DNA of 63,768 nucleotides, the filler included, from Welwitschia mirabilis (taxonomy: Eukaryota): assembly GCA_051453625.1 (NCBI GenBank). It is 6 parts of one record of this genome, joined end to end, with 100 filler letters (N's around TTAATTAATTAA, not from the genome) between each part and the next. Parts side by side here need not be neighbours in the genome. Positions count along the whole stretch, not along the records: positions 62,271 to 63,768 come from JBOZIK010000001.1; 5 more parts are not named here. One strand, given 5' to 3'. The number at the start of each line of letters is the position of its first letter. The first letter of the stretch is position 1. The position numbers and the translations under genes were made by a program. The notes beneath the pieces are model-generated. The model saw only the letters and a program-made list of their open reading frames with translations. It did no database searches and was not told where the DNA came from. Positions 8,053 to 63,768 of the stretch are shown in pieces.

Positions 8053-8152
8053 NNNNNNNNNNNNNNNNNNNNNNNNNNNNNNNNNNNNNNNNNNNNTTAA
8101 TTAATTAANNNNNNNNNNNNNNNNNNNNNNNNNNNNNNNNNNNNNNNNNNNN
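8053..8152. other. Artificial contig-joining linker N44-TTAATTAATTAA-N44
   Basis: Exactly 44 N, a 12-mer giving stops in all six frames, then 44 N. The same structure recurs five times. Confidence 0.97.
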
Positions 8153-10112
8153 TGGGATAGCAAGACTATTCAATTTGAATTACCAAATCTTTAATAACAC
8201 CTATTACTTTCTTAATTGAAGTATTCACTAATTCTAAGACAATAAAAGTAGGCTCTATTCTATCCTCCAAACCAAGTCTCTTACAAATGGGAAGTGGCAT
8301 AATATTAACACTTACTCTAATGTCAATTAAAAATTTCCTGATCTTTTTATTTCCTCTATACTATAGCTACTTCTAGATCTTTAAAATTGGATGATTTTTA
8401 TAACACTAAATTTGGAAGGGATTGGGCAAAAGAAACCTTATAAGAGATAACTTATTTATGTTTTCTTATTATTAGGTCTTTTCATAATTTTGAGTACCCT
8501 GAATTTTCTTGTAAAAATTTCCAAAAGGGTAAATTTATGCTTATATTTTTAATCAAGGCTTTTAAATATTCATTGAAATATGAATTGTTGTGAAGCTATC
8601 CATTCAATGAGTGGTTTTTTAAGAAGGATTTTTCTTTTTATTTTTGCTAAAAGAAGGAAAGTTATAATCTTCTAATATCTTCTTCTTCATCATTTCTAAA
8701 GTTATTTCGAGAGGTGGAAGGTTTACATGAAAGAGGATTTGTTTCTTATCCACTTCTTGTAACAACCTTACAATCTTTTCTTAGTTCATTTGGATTTGGT
8801 AAAGGTTGTATTGCTAAAGTTCTTTGAGGTCTTTGGTTTGCCAACATTATTTGTTAAAGNNNNNNNNNNNNNNNNNNNNNNNNNNNNNNNNNNNNNNNNN
8901 NNNNNNNNNNNNNNNNNNNNNNNNNNNTTTCCATGTTGGTATTTGATCTTTTAAAGTTGGTATTTTATCTTTTAAAGTTGGCATTTTGTTTTCTAATTTC
9001 ATCCACAAGGTTTGTGATTGGATCATTTGGATATTAGTAGTTGGATGAACTTGGTGGGTAGTTTGAATTTTCGAATTGTTTCTAAAAGGCTAAGAATTAT
9101 ATTGAAAATGAGTGTCTAATATTTGTTGTGCTTGATTTTGGTATTGAAAGTTTTGAGATGGTTGGTTGAAAGCACAAATGTCTTTTCATATTAATTCTTT
9201 GTATGTTGGTAAAAGAGGACAATTTTTAGTAACATGATAATTATCCTCACATAAATCATAAGTTTGCATAACATTTCTATTGGTTGTTGATTTGGCATCT
9301 AAAATCATTTCCATATACTTCTCCAAAGTTATTATAAAATTTTTCATGGAATTAATAGGATTGAATTCTACCTCCTTTTATTATTTCACCTCTTTTAAGT
9401 CTTTGAGGAGTTAACCTACTATTTGATTCTTTTTAGGAATTGACCAAGCCTAACTTACTTTCATAAGTTCTTTTAGTTTTATCCAGGCATCATGTAATGT
9501 AAGGTTCATAAGGTTCTTACTACAAGAAAAATTTACAAGTTGTTTTGTGTGGGGAATTAATCCACTATAAAAATGGTCTAGTTTTTCTATTCTTGAAAAG
9601 GCATCTACTAGATTGGAGTGGATTGCTATAAAGAAATGTTTAAAAGTAGAGGAATAATCTACATTTGGTTTTTATTAAATGTTTATTACCTCTTTTTTTT
9701 CTTTTTCTTATAGTTTATTCACTTATAAATCTCTTTACAAAGGTTTCCTGGACTTGATCCCATGTTCTTAAGCTTTTATAGGGTATAGGTTTTAGCCAAA
9801 GTTTTGCCATATAATTTAATGTCATGAAAAAGATTACCATATATATTCTATCTGTTTTTTTCCTTCCCATTTACTAAGGTAAGTGTTAGTTATTCAATAC
9901 TTGCAATGTGTTAAAAGGGGATTCTCATTATTTTCTCCACTAAAAGTTAGGTAGTTATGTAAATTTTTAAGCTCAACATTTTCTATTGGGGGTAGGTTAA
10001 AAGGTGTTTGAATTTCTCTTTTTTAATTTTCTAATAATTCCCTCAGGGTAAGGTTTGCATTAGGAGTAGAAGATCCTACAACTTTGTTTTGCTTACTAGA
10101 GTCACTTTACAT
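8153..10112 (-). pseudogene. gag: Decayed gag and aspartic protease
   Basis: Minus translation: ANLTLRELL..EIQTPFNLPPIENVELKNL..TFSGENNENP (gag) and LIDIRVSVNIMPLPICKRLGL..VIKDLVIQIE (cf. Athila protease LxDLGASVNIMP). Many stops. Confidence 0.85.
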
Positions 10113-16700: not shown

Positions 16701-18303
16701 NNNNNNNNNNNNNNNNNNNNNNNNNNNNNNNNNNNNNNNNNNNNNNNNNNNNNNNNNNNNNNNNNNNNNNNNNNNNNNNNNNNNNNNNNNNNNNNNNNNN
16801 NNNNNNNNNNNNNNNNNNNNNNNNNNNNNNNNNNNNNNNNNNNNNNNNNNNNNNNNNNNNNNNNNNNNNNNNNNNNNNNNNNNNNNNNNNNNNNNNNNNN
16901 NNNNNNNNNNNNNNNNNNNNNNNNNNNNNNNNNNNNNNNNNNNNNNNNNNNNNNNNNNNNNNNNNNNNNNNNNNNNNNNNNNNNNNNNNNNNNNNNNNNN
17001 NNNNNNNNNNNNNNNNNNNNNNNNNNNNNNNNNNNNNNNNNNNNNNNNNNNNNNNNNNNNNNNNNNNNNNNNNNNNNNNNNNNNNNNNNNNNNNNNNNNN
17101 NNNNNNNNNNNNNNNNNNNNNNNNNNNNNNNNNNNNNNNNNNNNNNNNNNNNNNNNNNNNNNNNNNNNNNNNNNNNNNNNNNNNNNNNNNNNNNNNNNNN
17201 NNNNNNNNNNNNNNNNNNNNNNNNNNNNNNNNNNNNNNNNNNNNNNNNNNNNNNNNNNNNNNNNNNNNNNNNNNNNNNNNNNNNNNNNNNNNNNNNNNNN
17301 NNNNNNNNNNNNNNNNNNNNNNNNNNNNNNNNNNNNNNNNNNNNNNNNNNNNNNNNNNNNNNNNNNNNNNNNNNNNNNNNNNNNNNNNNNNNNNNNNNNN
17401 NNNNNNNNNNNNNNNNNNNNNNNNNNNNNNNNNNNNNNNNNNNNNNNNNNNNNNNNNNNNNNNNNNNNNNNNNNNNNNNNNNNNNNNNNNNNNNNNNNNN
17501 NNNNNNNNNNNNNNNNNNNNNNNNNNNNNNNNNNNNNNNNNNNNNNNNNNNAGATAGTCCTTGTGACAGAAAAACTAAGATCTAATTGGAATCCATTACA
17601 TTTTTATTTCCTTTCACTGCATTTCATTTTCATTCACTTGCATTACATTTACTTGTTTATTTTCGTCTAGTTTTTATAAGATAAAAGATCCAAAAATATA
17701 TTGGAAATCAATTTTCTAACTCTAAGCCTAGTGCTTTTATTGGTATTATGATATTCAGGTGAACTCCCATTTATACTAGCATGTGTCTTNNNNNNNNNNN
17801 NNNNNNNNNNNNNNNNNNNNNNNNNNNNNNNNNNNNNNNNNNNNNNNNNNNNNNNNNNNNNNNNNNNNNNNNNNNNNNNNNNNNNNNNNTTTCCATTCTA
17901 CTTCATATTGTAGTCATCATTCTACTTGGTAGATTTCATAGTTTATGATGGTTAAAAACTAGTTAAATGCTCTTCTGAATTGTTCTAAATTATAATGAAG
18001 ATAGTTCTTGTAATAGAAAAACTAAGATCTAAGTGGAATCCATTACATTTTCATTTTCTTTCACTGCATTTCATCTCCATTCACTTGCATTACATTTACT
18101 TGTTTATTTACTTATAGTTTTTATAAGATAAAAGATCCAAAAATATATTGGAAATCAATTTTCTAACTCTAAGCCTAGTGCTTTTGTTGGGATTATGACA
18201 TTCAGGTGAACTCCCGTCTATACTAGCGTGTGTTTTTTTCAAGTCATTTGATTTATAAGTTTACCTAAAGGACTTCAGGCTTATATAAATTCACACTGCA
18301 ACA
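12534..18303 (+). mobile_element. Athila-like element, 3' part (integrase C-terminus, 3'UTR, PPT-like AAGTAGGGGG at ~16415-16424, 3' LTR ending ..CACTGCAACA)
   Basis: An integrase remnant is followed by long non-coding DNA, a purine tract, and an LTR whose CAACA end at 18303 abuts Copia coding sequence. Several gaps and duplicated blocks lie inside. Confidence 0.7.
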
Positions 18304-21020
18304 TTGTCTCATTTGCAAATTTTTGGATCTAAATGTTATGTTAAAAATAGGAAGCCTGATCAATATAAATTAGAACCTAGATCAAAATATTATATTTTTC
18401 TTGGTTACTCTAGTGAAAGTAAGGCTTATGGATGTTATAATTCACATTTCAAAAAGGTTTGAGAATGTATTAATGTGAAATTCATGCCTTTTGAATCATC
18501 TAATCCTATTTCTACTACTGATGATAATGATTCTTGTGGTGTCATATCTAGTGAATCTAAAGATGATAATGATGAGTAAATAGCACTTGAACAAACCCCT
18601 ATTGATGGCACAAGTCCTAGTACAAATAAAATGTCCATTCCTACACAAAGTCAAGGTGGAAATGAAACCAAAAATTTTCCTAAATTGTAGGATCAAAATA
18701 TTGATACTCACTCAAAACATAAGAGGATAACCTCTTATCATGATCTATCCAACATCATAGGTCCTAGTGAAGCTCCTATAAGAACAAGAAGTTAGCAAAC
18801 TCTTAGTGTAATCTTAAAAGCTAAGATATGCGATAACATTCTAAAATATTATTTAGCTTTACGATGTGNNNNNNNNNNNNNNNNNNNNNNNNNNNNNNNN
18901 NNNNNNNNNNNNNNNNNNNNNNNNNNNNNNNNNNNNNNNNNNNNNNNNNNNNNNNNNNNNNNNNNNNNNNNNNNNNNNNNNNNNNNNNNNNNNNNNNNNN
19001 NNNNNNNNNNNNNNNNNNNNNNNNNNNNNNNNNNNNNNNNNNNNNNNNNNNNNNNNNNNNNNNNNNNNNNNNNNNNNNNNNNNNNNNNNNNNNNNNNNNN
19101 NNNNNNGGCATAGATTATGATGAAACTTATGCTCCTATTGCTTGTCTTAAATCTATTAGAGATTTTCTTACCTGTGCTTCCAAAAATTGTATGATTGTTT
19201 CACAAATGGATGTCAAATCTACCTTCCTGAATGGGGTTCTTGAAGAAGAGGTATACATCTCACAACCCTAAGGTTTTATAAAATAAGATATAGAAAATCA
19301 TGTTTATTTATTAAAAAATACATTTTATGATTGGAAACAAGCCCCATGGACTTGGTTCTCAANNNNNNNNNNNNNNNNNNNNNNNNNNNNNNNNNNNNNN
19401 NNNNNNNNNNNNNNNNNNNNNNNNNNNNNNNNNNNNNNNNNNNNNNNNNNNNNNNNNNNNNNTTTATGATTGGAAACAAGCCCCATGGACTTGGTTCTCA
19501 AGGCTAGATTCTTATATATGAAATCATGGTTATAAGAAATGTTATTTTGAAAATACTTTGTATAAGAAAGCCATTAAAGGCCATTCAATTTTTATCTTAA
19601 TCTATGTTGATGATATAATATTTGATGGCACAGATAAGAAGTTGATTGACAAGTTCAAGAATGATATGACAAGAGAGTTTCAAATGACTAATATTGGCCA
19701 ACTCTCTTATTTCNNNNNNNNNNNNNNNNNNNNNNNNNNNNNNNNNNNNNNNNNNNNNNNNNNNNNNNNNNNNNNNNNNNNNNNNNNNNNNNNNNNNNNN
19801 NNNNNNNNNNNNNACATTGCATGGTTGGAAACAAGCCCCAAGGACTTGGTTCTCAAGGCTAGATTCTTATATATGAAATCATGGTTACAAGAAATGTTAT
19901 TCTGAAAATACTTTGTATAAGAAAGACATTAAAGGTCATTTAATTTTTATCTTAATCTATGTTGATGATATAGTATTTAATGGCACAGATAAGAAGTTTA
20001 TTAACAAGTTCAAGAATGATATGATAAGAGAGATTCAAATGACTAATCTTGGCCAGCTCTCTTATTATNNNNNNNNNNNNNNNNNNNNNNNNNNNNNNNN
20101 NNNNNNNNNNNNNNNNNNNNNNNNNNNNNNNNNNNNNNNNNNNNNNNNNNNNNNNNNNNNNNNNNNNNGACTAATCTTGGCCAACTCTCTTATTTCTTTG
20201 AATTCAGATTCAGTAAAACCCAAGAGGCATATTCTTAAATCAAGGTAAATATGCTTTTTACATGTTAAAAAATTTGATATGCATGAATGCAAATCTATCT
20301 ACTATCCTTTATCAACTAATCACAAAATCAAAAGGGACATGAAGGAAGATGAGGTTGATAAGAACACCTATAGATCTATGATTGGTAGTTTAATATATCT
20401 AACTGCAACTCATGTTGATATTCAATATGCTATTAGCTTGATGTCTAGATTTATGACTTGTCTAAGAAAGACTCATCTTGATTTTCTTAAAATAATATTA
20501 CTTTATATTGAAGACGCATTGGATTATAGACTCTTTTATAAGATAAATAACAATATCAAATTGTTAGATATGTTGATGCAAATTGGGCTAGCAGTCTCAA
20601 TTATTGAAAAAGAACAAAAGGATATGCAATGCTTTTTGGAGGAAGCCTTTTCTCATGGTCAAGTAAAAAAAAATCTTTTATGGCTCTTTCTACCACTAAA
20701 GCAGAGTACATAACAGTTCATTTAGCAAGCCAACAGTTGGCATGACTTAATAAATTGCTTGAAGATTTTACTATTCTTGTTAAAAAGCCTATACATCTGC
20801 TATGTGATGGTGCTTCTACTATAGCAATTTCCAAGAATCCAGTCATGCATGCAAGAACCAAGCACATCAATATAAAGTTTCATTTCATTTGAAATCTAAT
20901 TAAAGATGGACTTATTATTCTTGATTATTATCCCTCCAAGTTATAACTTGCTAATTTTTTATGAAATCCCTAGATAAGAAAAGATTCCAAGATTTGAGAG
21001 AGAGGTTGTAAATCCTTAAC
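18304..21020 (+). pseudogene. pol: Ty1/Copia pol remnant (integrase C-term/SH3-like, RT, RNase H), possibly SIRE lineage
   Basis: HLQIFGSKCYV..KLEPRS..IFLGYSSESKAY; GIDYDETYAP; QMDVKSTFLNG; KQAPRTW; IYVDDI; YRSMIGSLIYLT; ALSTTKAEY; KNPVMHARTKHINIKFHF. Stops, frameshifts and gap-associated duplications are present. Confidence 0.93.
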
Positions 21021-28707: not shown

Positions 28708-28807
28708 NNNNNNNNNNNNNNNNNNNNNNNNNNNNNNNNNNNNNNNNNNNNTTAATTAATTAANNNNNNNNNNNNNNNNNNNNNNNNNNNNNNNNNNNNN
28801 NNNNNNN
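28708..28807. other. Artificial contig-joining linker N44-TTAATTAATTAA-N44
   Basis: Same exact 100-nt structure as at 8053. Confidence 0.97.
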
Positions 28808-44453: not shown

Positions 44454-44553
44454 NNNNNNNNNNNNNNNNNNNNNNNNNNNNNNNNNNNNNNNNNNNNTTA
44501 ATTAATTAANNNNNNNNNNNNNNNNNNNNNNNNNNNNNNNNNNNNNNNNNNNN
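44454..44553. other. Artificial contig-joining linker N44-TTAATTAATTAA-N44
   Basis: Same exact 100-nt structure as at 8053. Confidence 0.97.
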
Positions 44554-57393: not shown

Positions 57394-57493
57394 NNNNNNN
57401 NNNNNNNNNNNNNNNNNNNNNNNNNNNNNNNNNNNNNTTAATTAATTAANNNNNNNNNNNNNNNNNNNNNNNNNNNNNNNNNNNNNNNNNNNN
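57394..57493. other. Artificial contig-joining linker N44-TTAATTAATTAA-N44
   Basis: Same exact 100-nt structure as at 8053. Confidence 0.97.
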
Positions 57494-60800: not shown

Positions 60801-62170
60801 AGTTAAGTTCTTAAAATAATGAATGATAAGATCAAAAGCTACTTAGAAATAAACTCACCTGTTCACACCTCATAAACACACTTGAATTCTCAAAAGTAAA
60901 ATGATCATGTGGAAATACTAAGAGTTTAAAAAATGAACAATGCCTTTGATGATAGCAAGAACACCACTGGTCCCATAATATTAAATTTTATTACAATTAT
61001 TCCATAACAAGAGGAGTGCAATAGTCAGAGAAGTAAAAACCCATGAAGCATGACCAACTAACCCCTTAGTTGANNNNNNNNNNNNNNNNNNNNNNNNNNN
61101 NNNNNNNNNNNNNNNNNNNNNNNNNNNNNNNNNNNNNNNNNNNNNNNNNNNNNNNNNNNNNNNNNNNNNNNNNTTCTTAAAATAATGAATGATAAGATCA
61201 AAAGCTACTTAGAAATAAACTCACCTGCTCACACCTCATAAACACACTTGAATTCTCAAAAGTGAAATGATCATGTGGAAATACTAAGAGTAAAAAATGA
61301 ACAATGCCTTTGATGATAGCAAGAACTCCACTGATCCCATAATATTAAAGTTTATTACAATTGTTCCATAACAAGGGGAGTGCAATAGTCAGAAAAGTAA
61401 AAACCCATGAAGCATGACTAACTAACCCCTTAGTTAAGTTTTGACAGCTACCAACACTGCTAAAGGTTCCTTTTGAAAACATTTACCCTAGTGCAATAGG
61501 ACATCATGGTAACTATGTATTTTCTTTAAGTACAAAAAAAATTTCCACATGATCACACAGTCAAAAAGACAAAAATAAATAAGTGGCATAAGATACAGAA
61601 AAGAGTACTCCTAAACAACCAAATCTTACACCATAAAAAAAGCACAATAACTGAGACATCTTCCCTCAAAATGAAGTCCATATACATAAGAATGTCTAAA
61701 GATTAGGTAAATCAAATCTTATGATTGTAAAAATTCCCAAGTGTAAATACTAGTTATGGAAACTTCATAAAGAAACACATAAGTCAAGTTTAAAAGATGA
61801 TCAAGTGATATCATAACATTCATTAAAGGAATAAGCTAAGAAAGAATTTAGATAATAATAGATTGAAAGTCCTTCTCATTGAGGGAAACCTCCAAAACAA
61901 GTGAATTTACCATGTTCAAGATTATATTAAAAGATATTTCATATAGTTTCAACCTTTGTCCATTAACTTTTTGAATCTCCTTACTCTTTAAGGTAAAAAT
62001 ATTAATAGAGCCATTAGAATGCACTTTTCTATAAGATAAGGATCTAACCATTTAGATTTCAACTTATTATTTAAAAGATATACTCTAGTGTTGTATAAAA
62101 GGATAAGTTAACCAGGTTTAAACTTTTTAGGAAGTAATGTTTTATCATGTTTAAATTTAGCTTAGGCTAT
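57872..62170 (-). mobile_element. Athila-like element 3' internal region (integrase tail, long spacer, additional ORF)
   Basis: Integrase tail at 61848-62170 (VRSLSY..HSNGSINI..QKVNGQRLKLY), a spacer resembling the reverse complement of 13800-15050, then the extra ORF. Confidence 0.8.
57988..59450 (-). pseudogene. Athila additional post-pol ORF (env-like / ATHILA ORF-1 / Transposase_32-like), decayed
   Basis: MEFY..ISSIRDHEVVILLHHI..YRVFHRGLIHKIIP..MITHLQIL..MDLPTFI..LGYPCLLSALF..FGIP matches the EFY / VRG / LH..I.P / LPYP.L pattern. Same strand as, and downstream of, integrase. Ends approximate. Confidence 0.7.
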
Positions 62171-62270
62171 NNNNNNNNNNNNNNNNNNNNNNNNNNNNNN
62201 NNNNNNNNNNNNNNTTAATTAATTAANNNNNNNNNNNNNNNNNNNNNNNNNNNNNNNNNNNNNNNNNNNN
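62171..62270. other. Artificial contig-joining linker N44-TTAATTAATTAA-N44
   Basis: Same exact 100-nt structure as at 8053. Confidence 0.97.
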
Positions 62271-62481
62271 CCTCATAGGAGTCCTATATGTGGAATACAG
62301 GACCCGCAAAGAGAGGGAAGAGAAAGTAAATTTCTAGAACCATGTCATTCAGGTAAATACAGATCTGGATGTTAACTTATTTCAAAAAAAGGGGGGAAAG
62401 ATTTCGGGAATGTTATGATTGAATTTAGTGGTTATGAGATAGGCATTAAGTTAATGTTAGAAATGTTATGATTAAGTGCAG

Positions 62482-62592
62482 TGATTTGAAGTGCTTGATG
62501 GACTCTTAGGATGCCCATGGAAAACAGTGGGACTGGCTTTCAACTGCACATTTCTACTATTTGGATCAGTGATACAACTCATAGGCTATGCT
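62482..62592 (+). pseudogene. AUX1: AUX1/LAX auxin influx carrier single-exon fragment
   Basis: After a TGCAG acceptor: *FEVLDGLLGCPWKTVGLAFNCTFLLFGSVIQLIGYA, versus AUX1/LAX WFEVLDGLLGxxWKAxGLAFNCTFLLFGSVIQLIACA. The first codon has decayed from TGG to TGA. The exact paralog (AUX1 vs LAX) is not resolvable. Confidence 0.93.
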
Positions 62593-62950
62593 TTCATCGC
62601 AGTAAGACAAATATCATTGTTACTATCAAAGGATTTTAGACCTTGGACAATAGCTATGAGGATAGAATTTATCTAATTCTATTGAAGAACATTGGAAGAA
62701 ATTTCTTCACAGACATATCCTAGGGTTTCTAGAGTTACTTATTTCAAAACGGTGATTTTTTACCTTTGTGAAACTCCCATATTGGTAAGCAAAACTCTGA
62801 CCAATTTTGGCAACTTGTAGCAGGGAATTTCTTAGTCCTACATAGGCAATAAGAAAAACCTCGGTAAGTTTTGTTCCTAAATGACAAAGATGATCCTAAA
62901 CAACATTCCAAGCATTTTCATTAGGCGATTGAACATTAATAAGGAACTGT
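62589..62950 (-). pseudogene. KPNB1: Importin beta-1 (karyopherin beta 1) N-terminal HEAT-region fragment
   Basis: Minus translation EIPCYKLPKLVRVLLTNM..LK*VTLETLGYVCEEISSNVLQ*N*INSILIAIVQGLKSFDSNNDICLTAMKA, versus plant importin beta ELPQKQWPELI.SLLSN..KQATLETLGYLCEEVSPDVV.Q..VNKILTAVVQGM....NNDVRLAATRA. Confidence 0.85.
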
Positions 62951-63067
62951 ATTATATCTACTACCATTTCAGAAATTGAAAAGAAAGAAACAATATGAAA
63001 GTGTAGCCAAAGAGTTCTAGAAACAAAGATGAAGTAGAAATCCTGCCTTGATTTGATTCACAGAAGA

Positions 63068-63277
63068 CGAGCAACGAGCAATGAGTGAGCAACAAGCAAC
63101 GAGCAACGAGCAATGAGCGAGTAAGAAGCAACGAGCAATGAGCGAGCAACGAGCAATAAGTGAGCCATGAGTAACAAGCAATGAGCATGTAATAAGGTAA
63201 TGTCGAGCTAGCGAGAAGCGAGGAGCTAATAGTGTACGAGCGCAAAGCGAGCGAGGAGTAATCACGGAGCTAGCGAG
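63068..63277. repeat. GC-rich short tandem repeat (GAGCAAC/GAGCAAT 7-mers with 11-mer variants)
   Basis: Directly visible; lies just inside the CACTA subterminal region. Confidence 0.9.
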
Positions 63278-63582
63278 TTACATTTGAGGTGTTTCATTTG
63301 ACTAAACCACACACGTTGGGTAAGGGTTTTGCTTTTAGCAGCACACATAGGTGTATTTTTTAAGGTTTTTTAAGATTAACCTTTTAAGGCGTTTGTTTTG
63401 TTAAACGCCTTAAAAGCCATTGCCCAATAAACGCCTTAAAAGTTCAAAAAGATCGCCACCTTTTTATGGCATTTGTCTCTTAAACACCTTAAAATATCAA
63501 AATATTTAAGCGATCTGATCAGCGGGGGATTTTAAAGCGTTTATTAAAAAAACACTTTTAAAAGCCTCTATTTCTTATAGTA

Positions 63583-63768
63583 TGTTGGTTAAAAACTAGT
63601 TAATACTCTTCTTAATTAATCTAAATTATAGAGAGACTATTCTTTATGGCAGAAGGATTATGAACCAAGAGAGTTCATTTCATTTCCACTTGCATTACAT
63701 TTACTTATTTATTTCATTATAGTTTTTATAAGATAAAAGATTAAAAACATATTGAAAATCAATTCTCT
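63583..63768 (+). mobile_element. Athila-like LTR fragment (CACTA insertion target)
   Basis: Collinear with 17946-18170 (GGTTAAAAACTAGTTAA..CACTTGCATTACATTTACTT..TTTATAAGATAAAAGAT). Confidence 0.85.

Follow-up and report, generated by a model that had tools for sequence, protein, structure and literature searches.

A tail-to-tail AUX1/LAX–importin-beta-1 fragment chimera beside a candidate, degenerate CACTA transposon end

Introduction

Pack-type elements are defined by the TIRs of their superfamily, together with a TSD, around host-derived sequence that often comes from several loci (PMC8903248, PMC6379663). [quoted passage not shown] That CACTA elements capture gene fragments is already well documented, and the case presented here is at most one more example.

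The present study concerns a locus at the end of the window, by which we mean the whole 63,768-nt stretch (63.8 kb) of AT-rich, plant-like draft DNA that was analyzed. There, a piece of an AUX1/LAX auxin-influx carrier gene and a piece of an importin-beta-1-like gene are joined tail to tail, next to sequence that resembles the end of a CACTA transposon. Its closest counterparts are the Pack-CACTA elements described in Arabidopsis by Catoni et al. (2019, PMC6379663) and in maize and rice by Gisby and Catoni (2022, PMC8903248). In the visible 1.3 kb of the present element, general similarity searches turned up no transposase-like similarity. It differs from the elements presented in those two accounts in having one visible end, a TACTA terminus, and heavily decayed cargo. 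With the soybean CACTA elements (cited in PMC6379663) and the Chenopodium Jozin elements (PMC8978399) it shares subterminal repeats, tandem arrays close to an end, and captured, non-functional exon pieces. However, as they are presented in those sources, the soybean and Jozin elements are defined from both ends and/or from transposase domains, whereas the present element is defined from one end alone. The outcome is also the same as in Pack-MULE and Helitron chimeras, namely decayed chimeras that contain introns and are built from pieces of unlinked genes. Our literature search found no paper that deals with CACTA elements, AUX1, and importin together; supplements (for example, Table S1 of PMC8903248, on captured genes) and most subscription journals lay outside that search.

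Results

The locus occupies a separate scaffold of a gap-rich draft

The window contains 50 N runs, 7700 N in total. An identical 100-nt linker (N44-TTAATTAATTAA-N44) occurs in it five times, starting at 8053, 28708, 44454, 57394, and 62171, and splits it into six scaffolds. Linkers of this six-frame-stop kind are presumably a common way of joining unordered scaffolds. The last of the five bears directly on the locus:

62171–62270: scaffold linker N44-TTAATTAATTAA-N44; the sequence on its left is a different scaffold

A separate scaffold starts with position 62271 and continues to the window end at 63768. Because the linker lies at 62171–62270, the sequence left of 62271 is presumably no true neighbor of the locus and the 5′ extent of the LAX piece described below is cut off; the left edge of the gene-fragment region is an assembly edge and not a biological one. 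The linker is a warning against taking the upstream sequence as context. An Rfam search of 62271–63768 gave no matches at E up to 0.1.

Parts of this scaffold are tiled by near-exact Logan contigs from four runs, which belong to three studies and carry two organism labels. Contigs from run X1 with 0–1 other letters cover 62339–62618, 62706–62961, 63031–63409, and 63456–63629, and other exact or near-exact contigs cover 62406–62554 (X7, 0 other letters), 63031–63270 (X2, 0), and 63080–63340 (X10, 1). The best-matching run could be the source sample, and the independence of the contig support from the assembly is uncertain. The depths reported below are summed contig depths, that is, sums over Logan contigs and not copy numbers.

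A small, unplaced scaffold in a draft this rich in gaps, and in a repeat-rich context, is where one might expect short-read misassembly to have produced either the junction of the two gene fragments or the joint to the flanking repeat. We regard such an artifact as very improbable, given that the contigs from all four runs tile the stretch with 0–1 other letters and that 62271–63768 contains zero N.

An AUX1/LAX fragment retains a complete intron

The left part of the locus comprises three features:

62272–62352, plus strand: AUX1/LAX exon piece, AUX1 residues 96–121; 5′ side cut by the scaffold edge; TAG at 62335–62337
62353–62481, plus strand: retained intron, 129 nt; GT at 62353–62354, AG at 62480–62481
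62482–62592, plus strand: AUX1/LAX exon piece, broken inside the exon, from residue 122 to about 156–158; TGA at 62482–62484

An earlier, sequence-only reading of this DNA had placed an AUX1/LAX exon with its splice acceptor at 62482–62592 on the plus strand, and the searches bear this out: the piece matches residues 123–156 of Arabidopsis AUX1 at E 4.8e-13, with 31/34 residues identical in the alignment, and an AG stands directly before it. That reading had taken the LAX part to be a single exon piece, which proved too short, since an upstream piece and the full intron are also present. The upstream piece encodes 27 residues in one plus-strand frame; among solved structures it matches Arabidopsis LAX3 (9h61) at E 2e-6 and AUX1 (9jdr) residues 96–121 at E 7.1e-5. 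The AUX1 homology is interrupted at residue 121, where the GT stands, and picks up again at residue 122 past the AG, 129 nt on. The whole intron, with both its GT and its AG, is kept between the two LAX exon pieces, which directly indicates that the fragment derives from genomic DNA and not from cDNA, and the sequence supports the earlier suggestion that pieces of two genes were fused as DNA. The intron contains a dispersed-repeat piece, at about 62348–62457: the alignment of a 414-nt contig (X10 record 9) is confined to 62348–62457, and depth is raised at 62371–62470.

The reading frame of the LAX part is neither open nor full-length, with two in-frame stops (TAG at 62335–62337 and TGA at 62482–62484) and homology that ends within the exon at 62586–62592. 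The TGA occupies residue 122, where Trp is expected. Related contigs carry G in place of A at 62484 in eight cases in X2 (56.7/62.9 of the depth), in seven in X7 (21.4/34.6), and in one in X10, and in 0/14 contigs in X1. Since the related contigs thus mostly read TGG at 62482–62484, the TGA is peculiar to the present copy or to a few copies, and the present LAX copy is a mutated derivative. A Pfam search with the 37-residue LAX piece returned no families at E up to 0.01.

An importin-beta-1-like fragment lies on the opposite strand

To the right of the LAX part, the minus strand carries one clear and one possible block of importin-beta homology:

62589–62831, minus strand: importin-beta-1-like fragment, residues about 123–199; 81 codons in one frame, with four in-frame stops
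62847–62876, minus strand: possible further importin-beta piece, residues 32–41; same frame, colinear, ten residues, weak

Read on the minus strand, 62586–62747 matches residues 146–197 of human importin beta-1 at E 1.2e-8, with matches to 12 further importin-beta chains, so that both gene families expected from the earlier reading were returned by the searches. Against a representative library of 1.84 billion proteins, the importin piece gave 57 matches at E up to 0.001. Five of the matched proteins were used for tblastn, four of them importin-beta-like, and these aligned over 62589–62831 in a single frame of 81 columns (P0003, E 1.3e-21; P0004, 5.6e-17; P0006, 2.2e-14; P0016, 7.3e-13). In Pfam, P0006 has the domains TPR_IMB1 (E 1.2e-100) and IBN_N. 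A word-indexed search of the piece against longer proteins yielded seven candidates, none at E up to 0.001, and Pfam returned no families for the fragment at E up to 0.01. The block has no frameshift, and its four stops in 81 codons, at 62760–62762, 62739–62741, 62679–62681, and 62673–62675, leave a reading frame that is neither open nor full-length.

The importin segment had been proposed to extend from 62589 to about 62950. The proposal holds to 62831 and possibly through 62847–62876, where tblastn matches are weak (E 0.31 with P0016, 1.8 with P0001, and 6.2 with P0006), but beyond 62876 tblastn gave no match. If the ten-residue piece is real, then the fragment would have an internal deletion of residues about 42–122, about 80 residues. 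At the other side of the fragment, tblastn with the five proteins found no homology past importin residue about 199. A likeness to importin residues 1–20 noted by eye at 62910–62969 was discarded, there being no tblastn match to it with the five proteins at E up to 50.

The two fragments meet within seven bases

62586–62592: tail-to-tail junction, 7 bases into which either gene homology can be extended

The LAX homology can be traced to 62586–62592 and the importin homology to 62586–62589, with up to 7 shared bases. The two homologies therefore meet or overlap at 62586–62592, in agreement with the earlier claim that AUX1/LAX and importin-beta are joined directly and convergently. A 2028-nt contig of organism B (X2 record 18, 81% alike) matches 62446–62591 and then diverges, the behavior expected of a LAX paralogue or parent. 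Because this match stops at 62591, the LAX-type homology ends at the junction.

Reads spanning 62592 had been named as a check on the junction. A 280-nt Logan contig (X1 record 1, one other letter) covers 62339–62618 and crosses it, but only 26–32 letters of that contig lie to the right, depending on where in 62586–62592 the junction is placed, which is borderline against the 31-letter rule, and the junction-bridging contigs come from one run among the matches listed.

In a rival explanation, the chimera is not mobile cargo. A LAX pseudogene broken within an exon would have been joined, by double-strand-break repair or as filler DNA, to a stretch bearing part of an importin-beta gene together with the truncated end of a transposon, and the transposon end would lie nearby by accident or through an aborted or one-ended excision that was never mobile. 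The scaffold edge at 62271–62272 interrupts the LAX homology, which may be much longer leftwards; because the LAX piece runs into that edge, it could be part of a long LAX pseudogene and host DNA rather than cargo. In addition, no TIR-like or subterminal motif was found near 62593, and the scaffold is unplaced and repeat-rich. We nevertheless consider this explanation somewhat unlikely. In plants, multi-gene, intron-containing chimeras typically lie inside Pack-type elements, as far as they are treated in PMC8903248 and PMC6379663, and here the fragments start within about 50–100 nt of the multi-copy terminal segment described next.

A multi-copy terminal segment contains a minisatellite and subterminal repeats

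Three features follow the importin fragment:

62900–63075: inward portion of a multi-copy segment, judged from contig depth to be a putative transposon-family terminal region
63067–63187: minisatellite of 7-nt GAGCAAY-like units (TRF), with looser copies to about 63260; repeat family D3
63281–63564: subterminal repeat region with AACGCCTTAAAAG-like motifs in both orientations (motif counts, fold, depth)

Summed depth over 62921–63570 is tens to hundreds in 4/4 runs, against 2–6 for exact contigs; at its inner part, 62921–63070, it is 75–177 in X1 and 329–582 in X2, against the same 2–6 for exact-match contigs. By this depth, the terminal 650–700 nt are multi-copy. The present copy differs from most others, with near-fixed other letters at 62929, 62962, 63002, and 63061. 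In contrast to this segment, the gene fragments have a depth of 7–41 at 62771–62870, near that of single exact contigs (2–6), and the difference fits a Pack element.

In the minisatellite, TRF reports a period of 7 with 14–19 copies, and a period of 32 with 91% matches. Beyond it, the 13-mer AACGCCTTAAAAG occurs three times exactly and twice with 2 mismatches in 63381–63541, in both orientations. At up to 2 mismatches there are 7 matches in the window, against 1.35 expected, and 0/100 shuffles reach 7; when 3 mismatches are allowed, 8 sites lie between 63281 and 63541. The subterminal region includes a 36-nt palindrome at 63381–63416, and the DNA of the region folds much better than its shuffles do (z -4.53). 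Summed depth at 63371–63420 is 390–1420 across four runs, and the aligned contigs have loose ends on both sides of the palindrome without a consensus (agreement 0.42–0.51). The palindrome motif is therefore dispersed in many unrelated contexts, as would be expected of a transposon subterminal motif.

Eight metagenome loci with two subterminal motifs 5–35 nt apart were also considered and set aside as unrelated: BLAST gave motif-level matches of 40–51 nt for 2/8 (E 5.8e-4), and no family member was found among them.

The candidate terminus reads TACTA and overlaps a very-high-copy repeat

The right-hand end of the scaffold comprises the candidate terminus and its flank:

63570–63582, minus strand: TIR-like 13-mer TACTATAAGAAAT, candidate degenerate CACTA terminus, bordering the subterminal repeats on their outer side
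63583–63768: flank, a very-high-copy repeat that is tandem elsewhere in the window; the homology begins somewhere in 63570–63583

The 13-mer TACTATAAGAAAT lies just outside the last subterminal motif, in the expected orientation, and has 1 mismatch to the 12-mer CACTAYAAGAAA. Compared with the maize En1 TIR, for which Table 2 of PMC3193017 gives CACTACAAGAAAA, it matches at 10/13 positions, with 3 mismatches: it agrees with the En/Spm terminus at positions 2–5 and 7–12, and differs in having T rather than C at position 1, T at position 6, and T at position 13. The sequence-only reading had reported a CACTA TIR with subterminal repeats close to the gene fragments. Of this, the subterminal repeats stand, given the shuffles above, but a literal CACTA is absent from 63570–63582; the terminus reads TACTA and overlaps the flanking repeat. 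With up to 3 mismatches allowed, the terminal 18-mer was found only once in the whole window.

In the flank, summed depth is 3965–33496 in three runs and 857–1712 in X10. Copies of the flank repeat at 17552–18330 in the window are 84–87% identical to it, and include two units that are 92% alike and about 447 nt apart. Because the flank-repeat contigs align from 63581 in 4/4 runs, and the BLAST alignment to the in-window copy starts at 63570, with 9/13 gapless matches in 63570–63582, the true boundary between element and flank is somewhere in 63570–63583. The data allow three readings of this overlap: the CACTA end may lie at 63582, with its last base changed from G to A and two chance matches to the flank; the terminus may have been shortened by a few bases; or it may have been lost. 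The candidate right-hand triplet of a 3-bp TSD is 63583–63585.

That the carrier belongs to another superfamily (Helitron, MULE, hAT, or PIF) or is an unclassified repeat, with the CACTA-like 13-mer a chance match in AT-rich DNA, is a reading that the terminus invites. The 13-mer is without the defining first C, its outer bases align to the flank repeat too, and comparable sites are common: 38 on the terminus strand and 69 in the window have at most 3 mismatches to the En1 13-mer, and 37 window sites have at most 2 mismatches to CACTAYAAGAAA, against 23.6 expected. Sites with at most 1 mismatch to CACTAYAAGAAA number only 4 in the window on both strands, and by our own arithmetic, which is partly post hoc, the chance that a TIR-like site falls no more than about 20 nt from the edge of the cluster is roughly 5e-4 to 1e-2. 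However, close direct and inverted motifs over about 280 nt, ending beside a TIR-like motif, are the CACTA pattern as set out in PMC8978399. Unlike in Pack-MULEs and Helitrons, neither a long MULE-type TIR nor a Helitron-type CTRR end with a GC-rich hairpin is seen by eye in the visible 1.5 kb. Hence we judge a carrier of another kind improbable.

The same terminus also enters into the non-cargo explanation raised above, which draws on the presence of one visible transposon end with an imperfect terminus.

Discussion

The reading that we prefer, at about an even chance, is that the locus is either a Pack-CACTA-like element that has decayed or a one-ended deletion derivative, and that it carries gene fragments captured at the DNA level. 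Collectively, the subterminal repeats, the TIR-like motif, the adjoining minisatellite, and the gene fragments agree with published CACTA ends. Among the features that characterize Pack-CACTA elements, we find direct and inverted subterminal repeats and sequence derived from host genes, the latter in a putatively internal position. We infer the CACTA superfamily, the placement of the fragments inside the mobile unit, and the route of their capture. Three points speak against the preferred reading: the terminus is TACTA and not CACTA, its outer bases can be aligned to the flank repeat, and the LAX piece may be host DNA. In particular, the "TIR" may belong to the flank, or the real terminus may be absent.

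Under the Pack-CACTA-like reading, a non-autonomous, CACTA-like (En/Spm-type) transposon end, now decayed, would carry on its inner side a tail-to-tail chimera of two genes. One part of this cargo would be an AUX1/LAX auxin-influx carrier piece, consisting of two exon pieces and an intron, and the other an importin-beta-1-like piece from the N-terminal HEAT-repeat region. Both would have been captured as genomic DNA and not as cDNA, and joined inside exons by repair or template switch, possibly with a few bases of microhomology. The two main blocks, which contain six stops in all and are free of frameshifts, would later have decayed by point mutation, and the element end would sit within a unit of the very-high-copy repeat. 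Because the contigs related to the fragments are 81–91% alike to them, the sequence suggests that the capture event is old. If the Pack-CACTA-like reading is true, then the locus is a further, decayed case in which a DNA transposon has captured and shuffled gene fragments.

The earlier reading had considered coding unlikely, on the grounds that both fragments carry stops, and it had pointed to a possible antisense relation to LAX; both statements are upheld by the present analysis, the second as a matter of geometry. With two stops in the LAX part and four in the importin block, making six in frame, and with both genes truncated and no Pfam families found, the locus is predicted to encode no protein. 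By the strands of the fragments, transcription running inward from 63582 on the minus strand would be antisense to the LAX exons. A far-reaching extension of this geometry is that the locus belongs to an amplified Pack-CACTA family, whose inward minus-strand RNA, sense to importin and antisense to LAX, feeds small RNAs acting in trans on auxin-influx carrier genes. We regard this as extremely improbable. If it were true, a transposon-borne fragment would modulate auxin transport, and only that scenario would be biologically notable. For annotation, the LAX and importin-beta similarities at this locus are best marked as pseudogene fragments and not as genes.

Repeats within and beside the chimera

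The candidate decayed CACTA end beside the AUX1/LAX–importin-beta-1 chimera is flanked by a very-high-copy repeat, located in the window at:

17552-18330, very-high-copy repeat
63570-63768, very-high-copy repeat

Summed contig depth, which is not a copy number, reached 3965-33496 in three public sequencing runs and 857-1712 in a fourth (X10), versus 2-6 for exact single contigs. Because two in-window units that are 92% alike have a spacing of ~447 nt, and an N gap separates them, this repeat may be a satellite. The 36-nt palindrome at 63381-63416, a perfect stem, is made of the subterminal motif; in the four runs it occurs in numerous unrelated sequence contexts, at a depth of 390-1420 and with loose ends that lack a consensus on both sides. 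Two repeats fall at 62348-62473, in the retained LAX intron. One is a dispersed-repeat piece of ~110 nt, seen from a 414-nt X10 contig that matches 62348-62457 only; the other is the 12-mer AATGTTATGATT, repeated directly and without change at 62409 and 62462.

Observations elsewhere in the window and in the protein library

Five identical linkers (N44, TTAATTAATTAA, N44) separate the parts:

8053-8152, linker
28708-28807, linker
44454-44553, linker
57394-57493, linker
62171-62270, linker

The window is therefore six scaffolds in a string, and adjacent scaffolds should not be taken as genomic context for each other. A tandem duplication at 60808-61435 (spacing ~365 nt, 95-97% alike; repeat families D5 and D7) sits in the unrelated scaffold upstream of the chimera scaffold. 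A 198-nt stretch at 9518-9715 is bounded by two inverted CACTA-TIR-like motifs; it could be a very small element derived from CACTA, or the arrangement could be due to chance:

9518, +, CACTA-TIR-like 12-mer, TACTACAAGAAA
9704, -, CACTA-TIR-like 12-mer, AACTATAAGAAA

In the representative protein library, two predicted proteins carry an importin-beta N-terminal piece fused to unrelated domains, namely P0001 (Ribosomal_L7Ae + IBN_N + EFG_IV) and P0003 (IBN_N + TPR_IPO5 + RSE1 beta-propeller + EMP70); these look like further multi-gene chimeras or faulty gene models.
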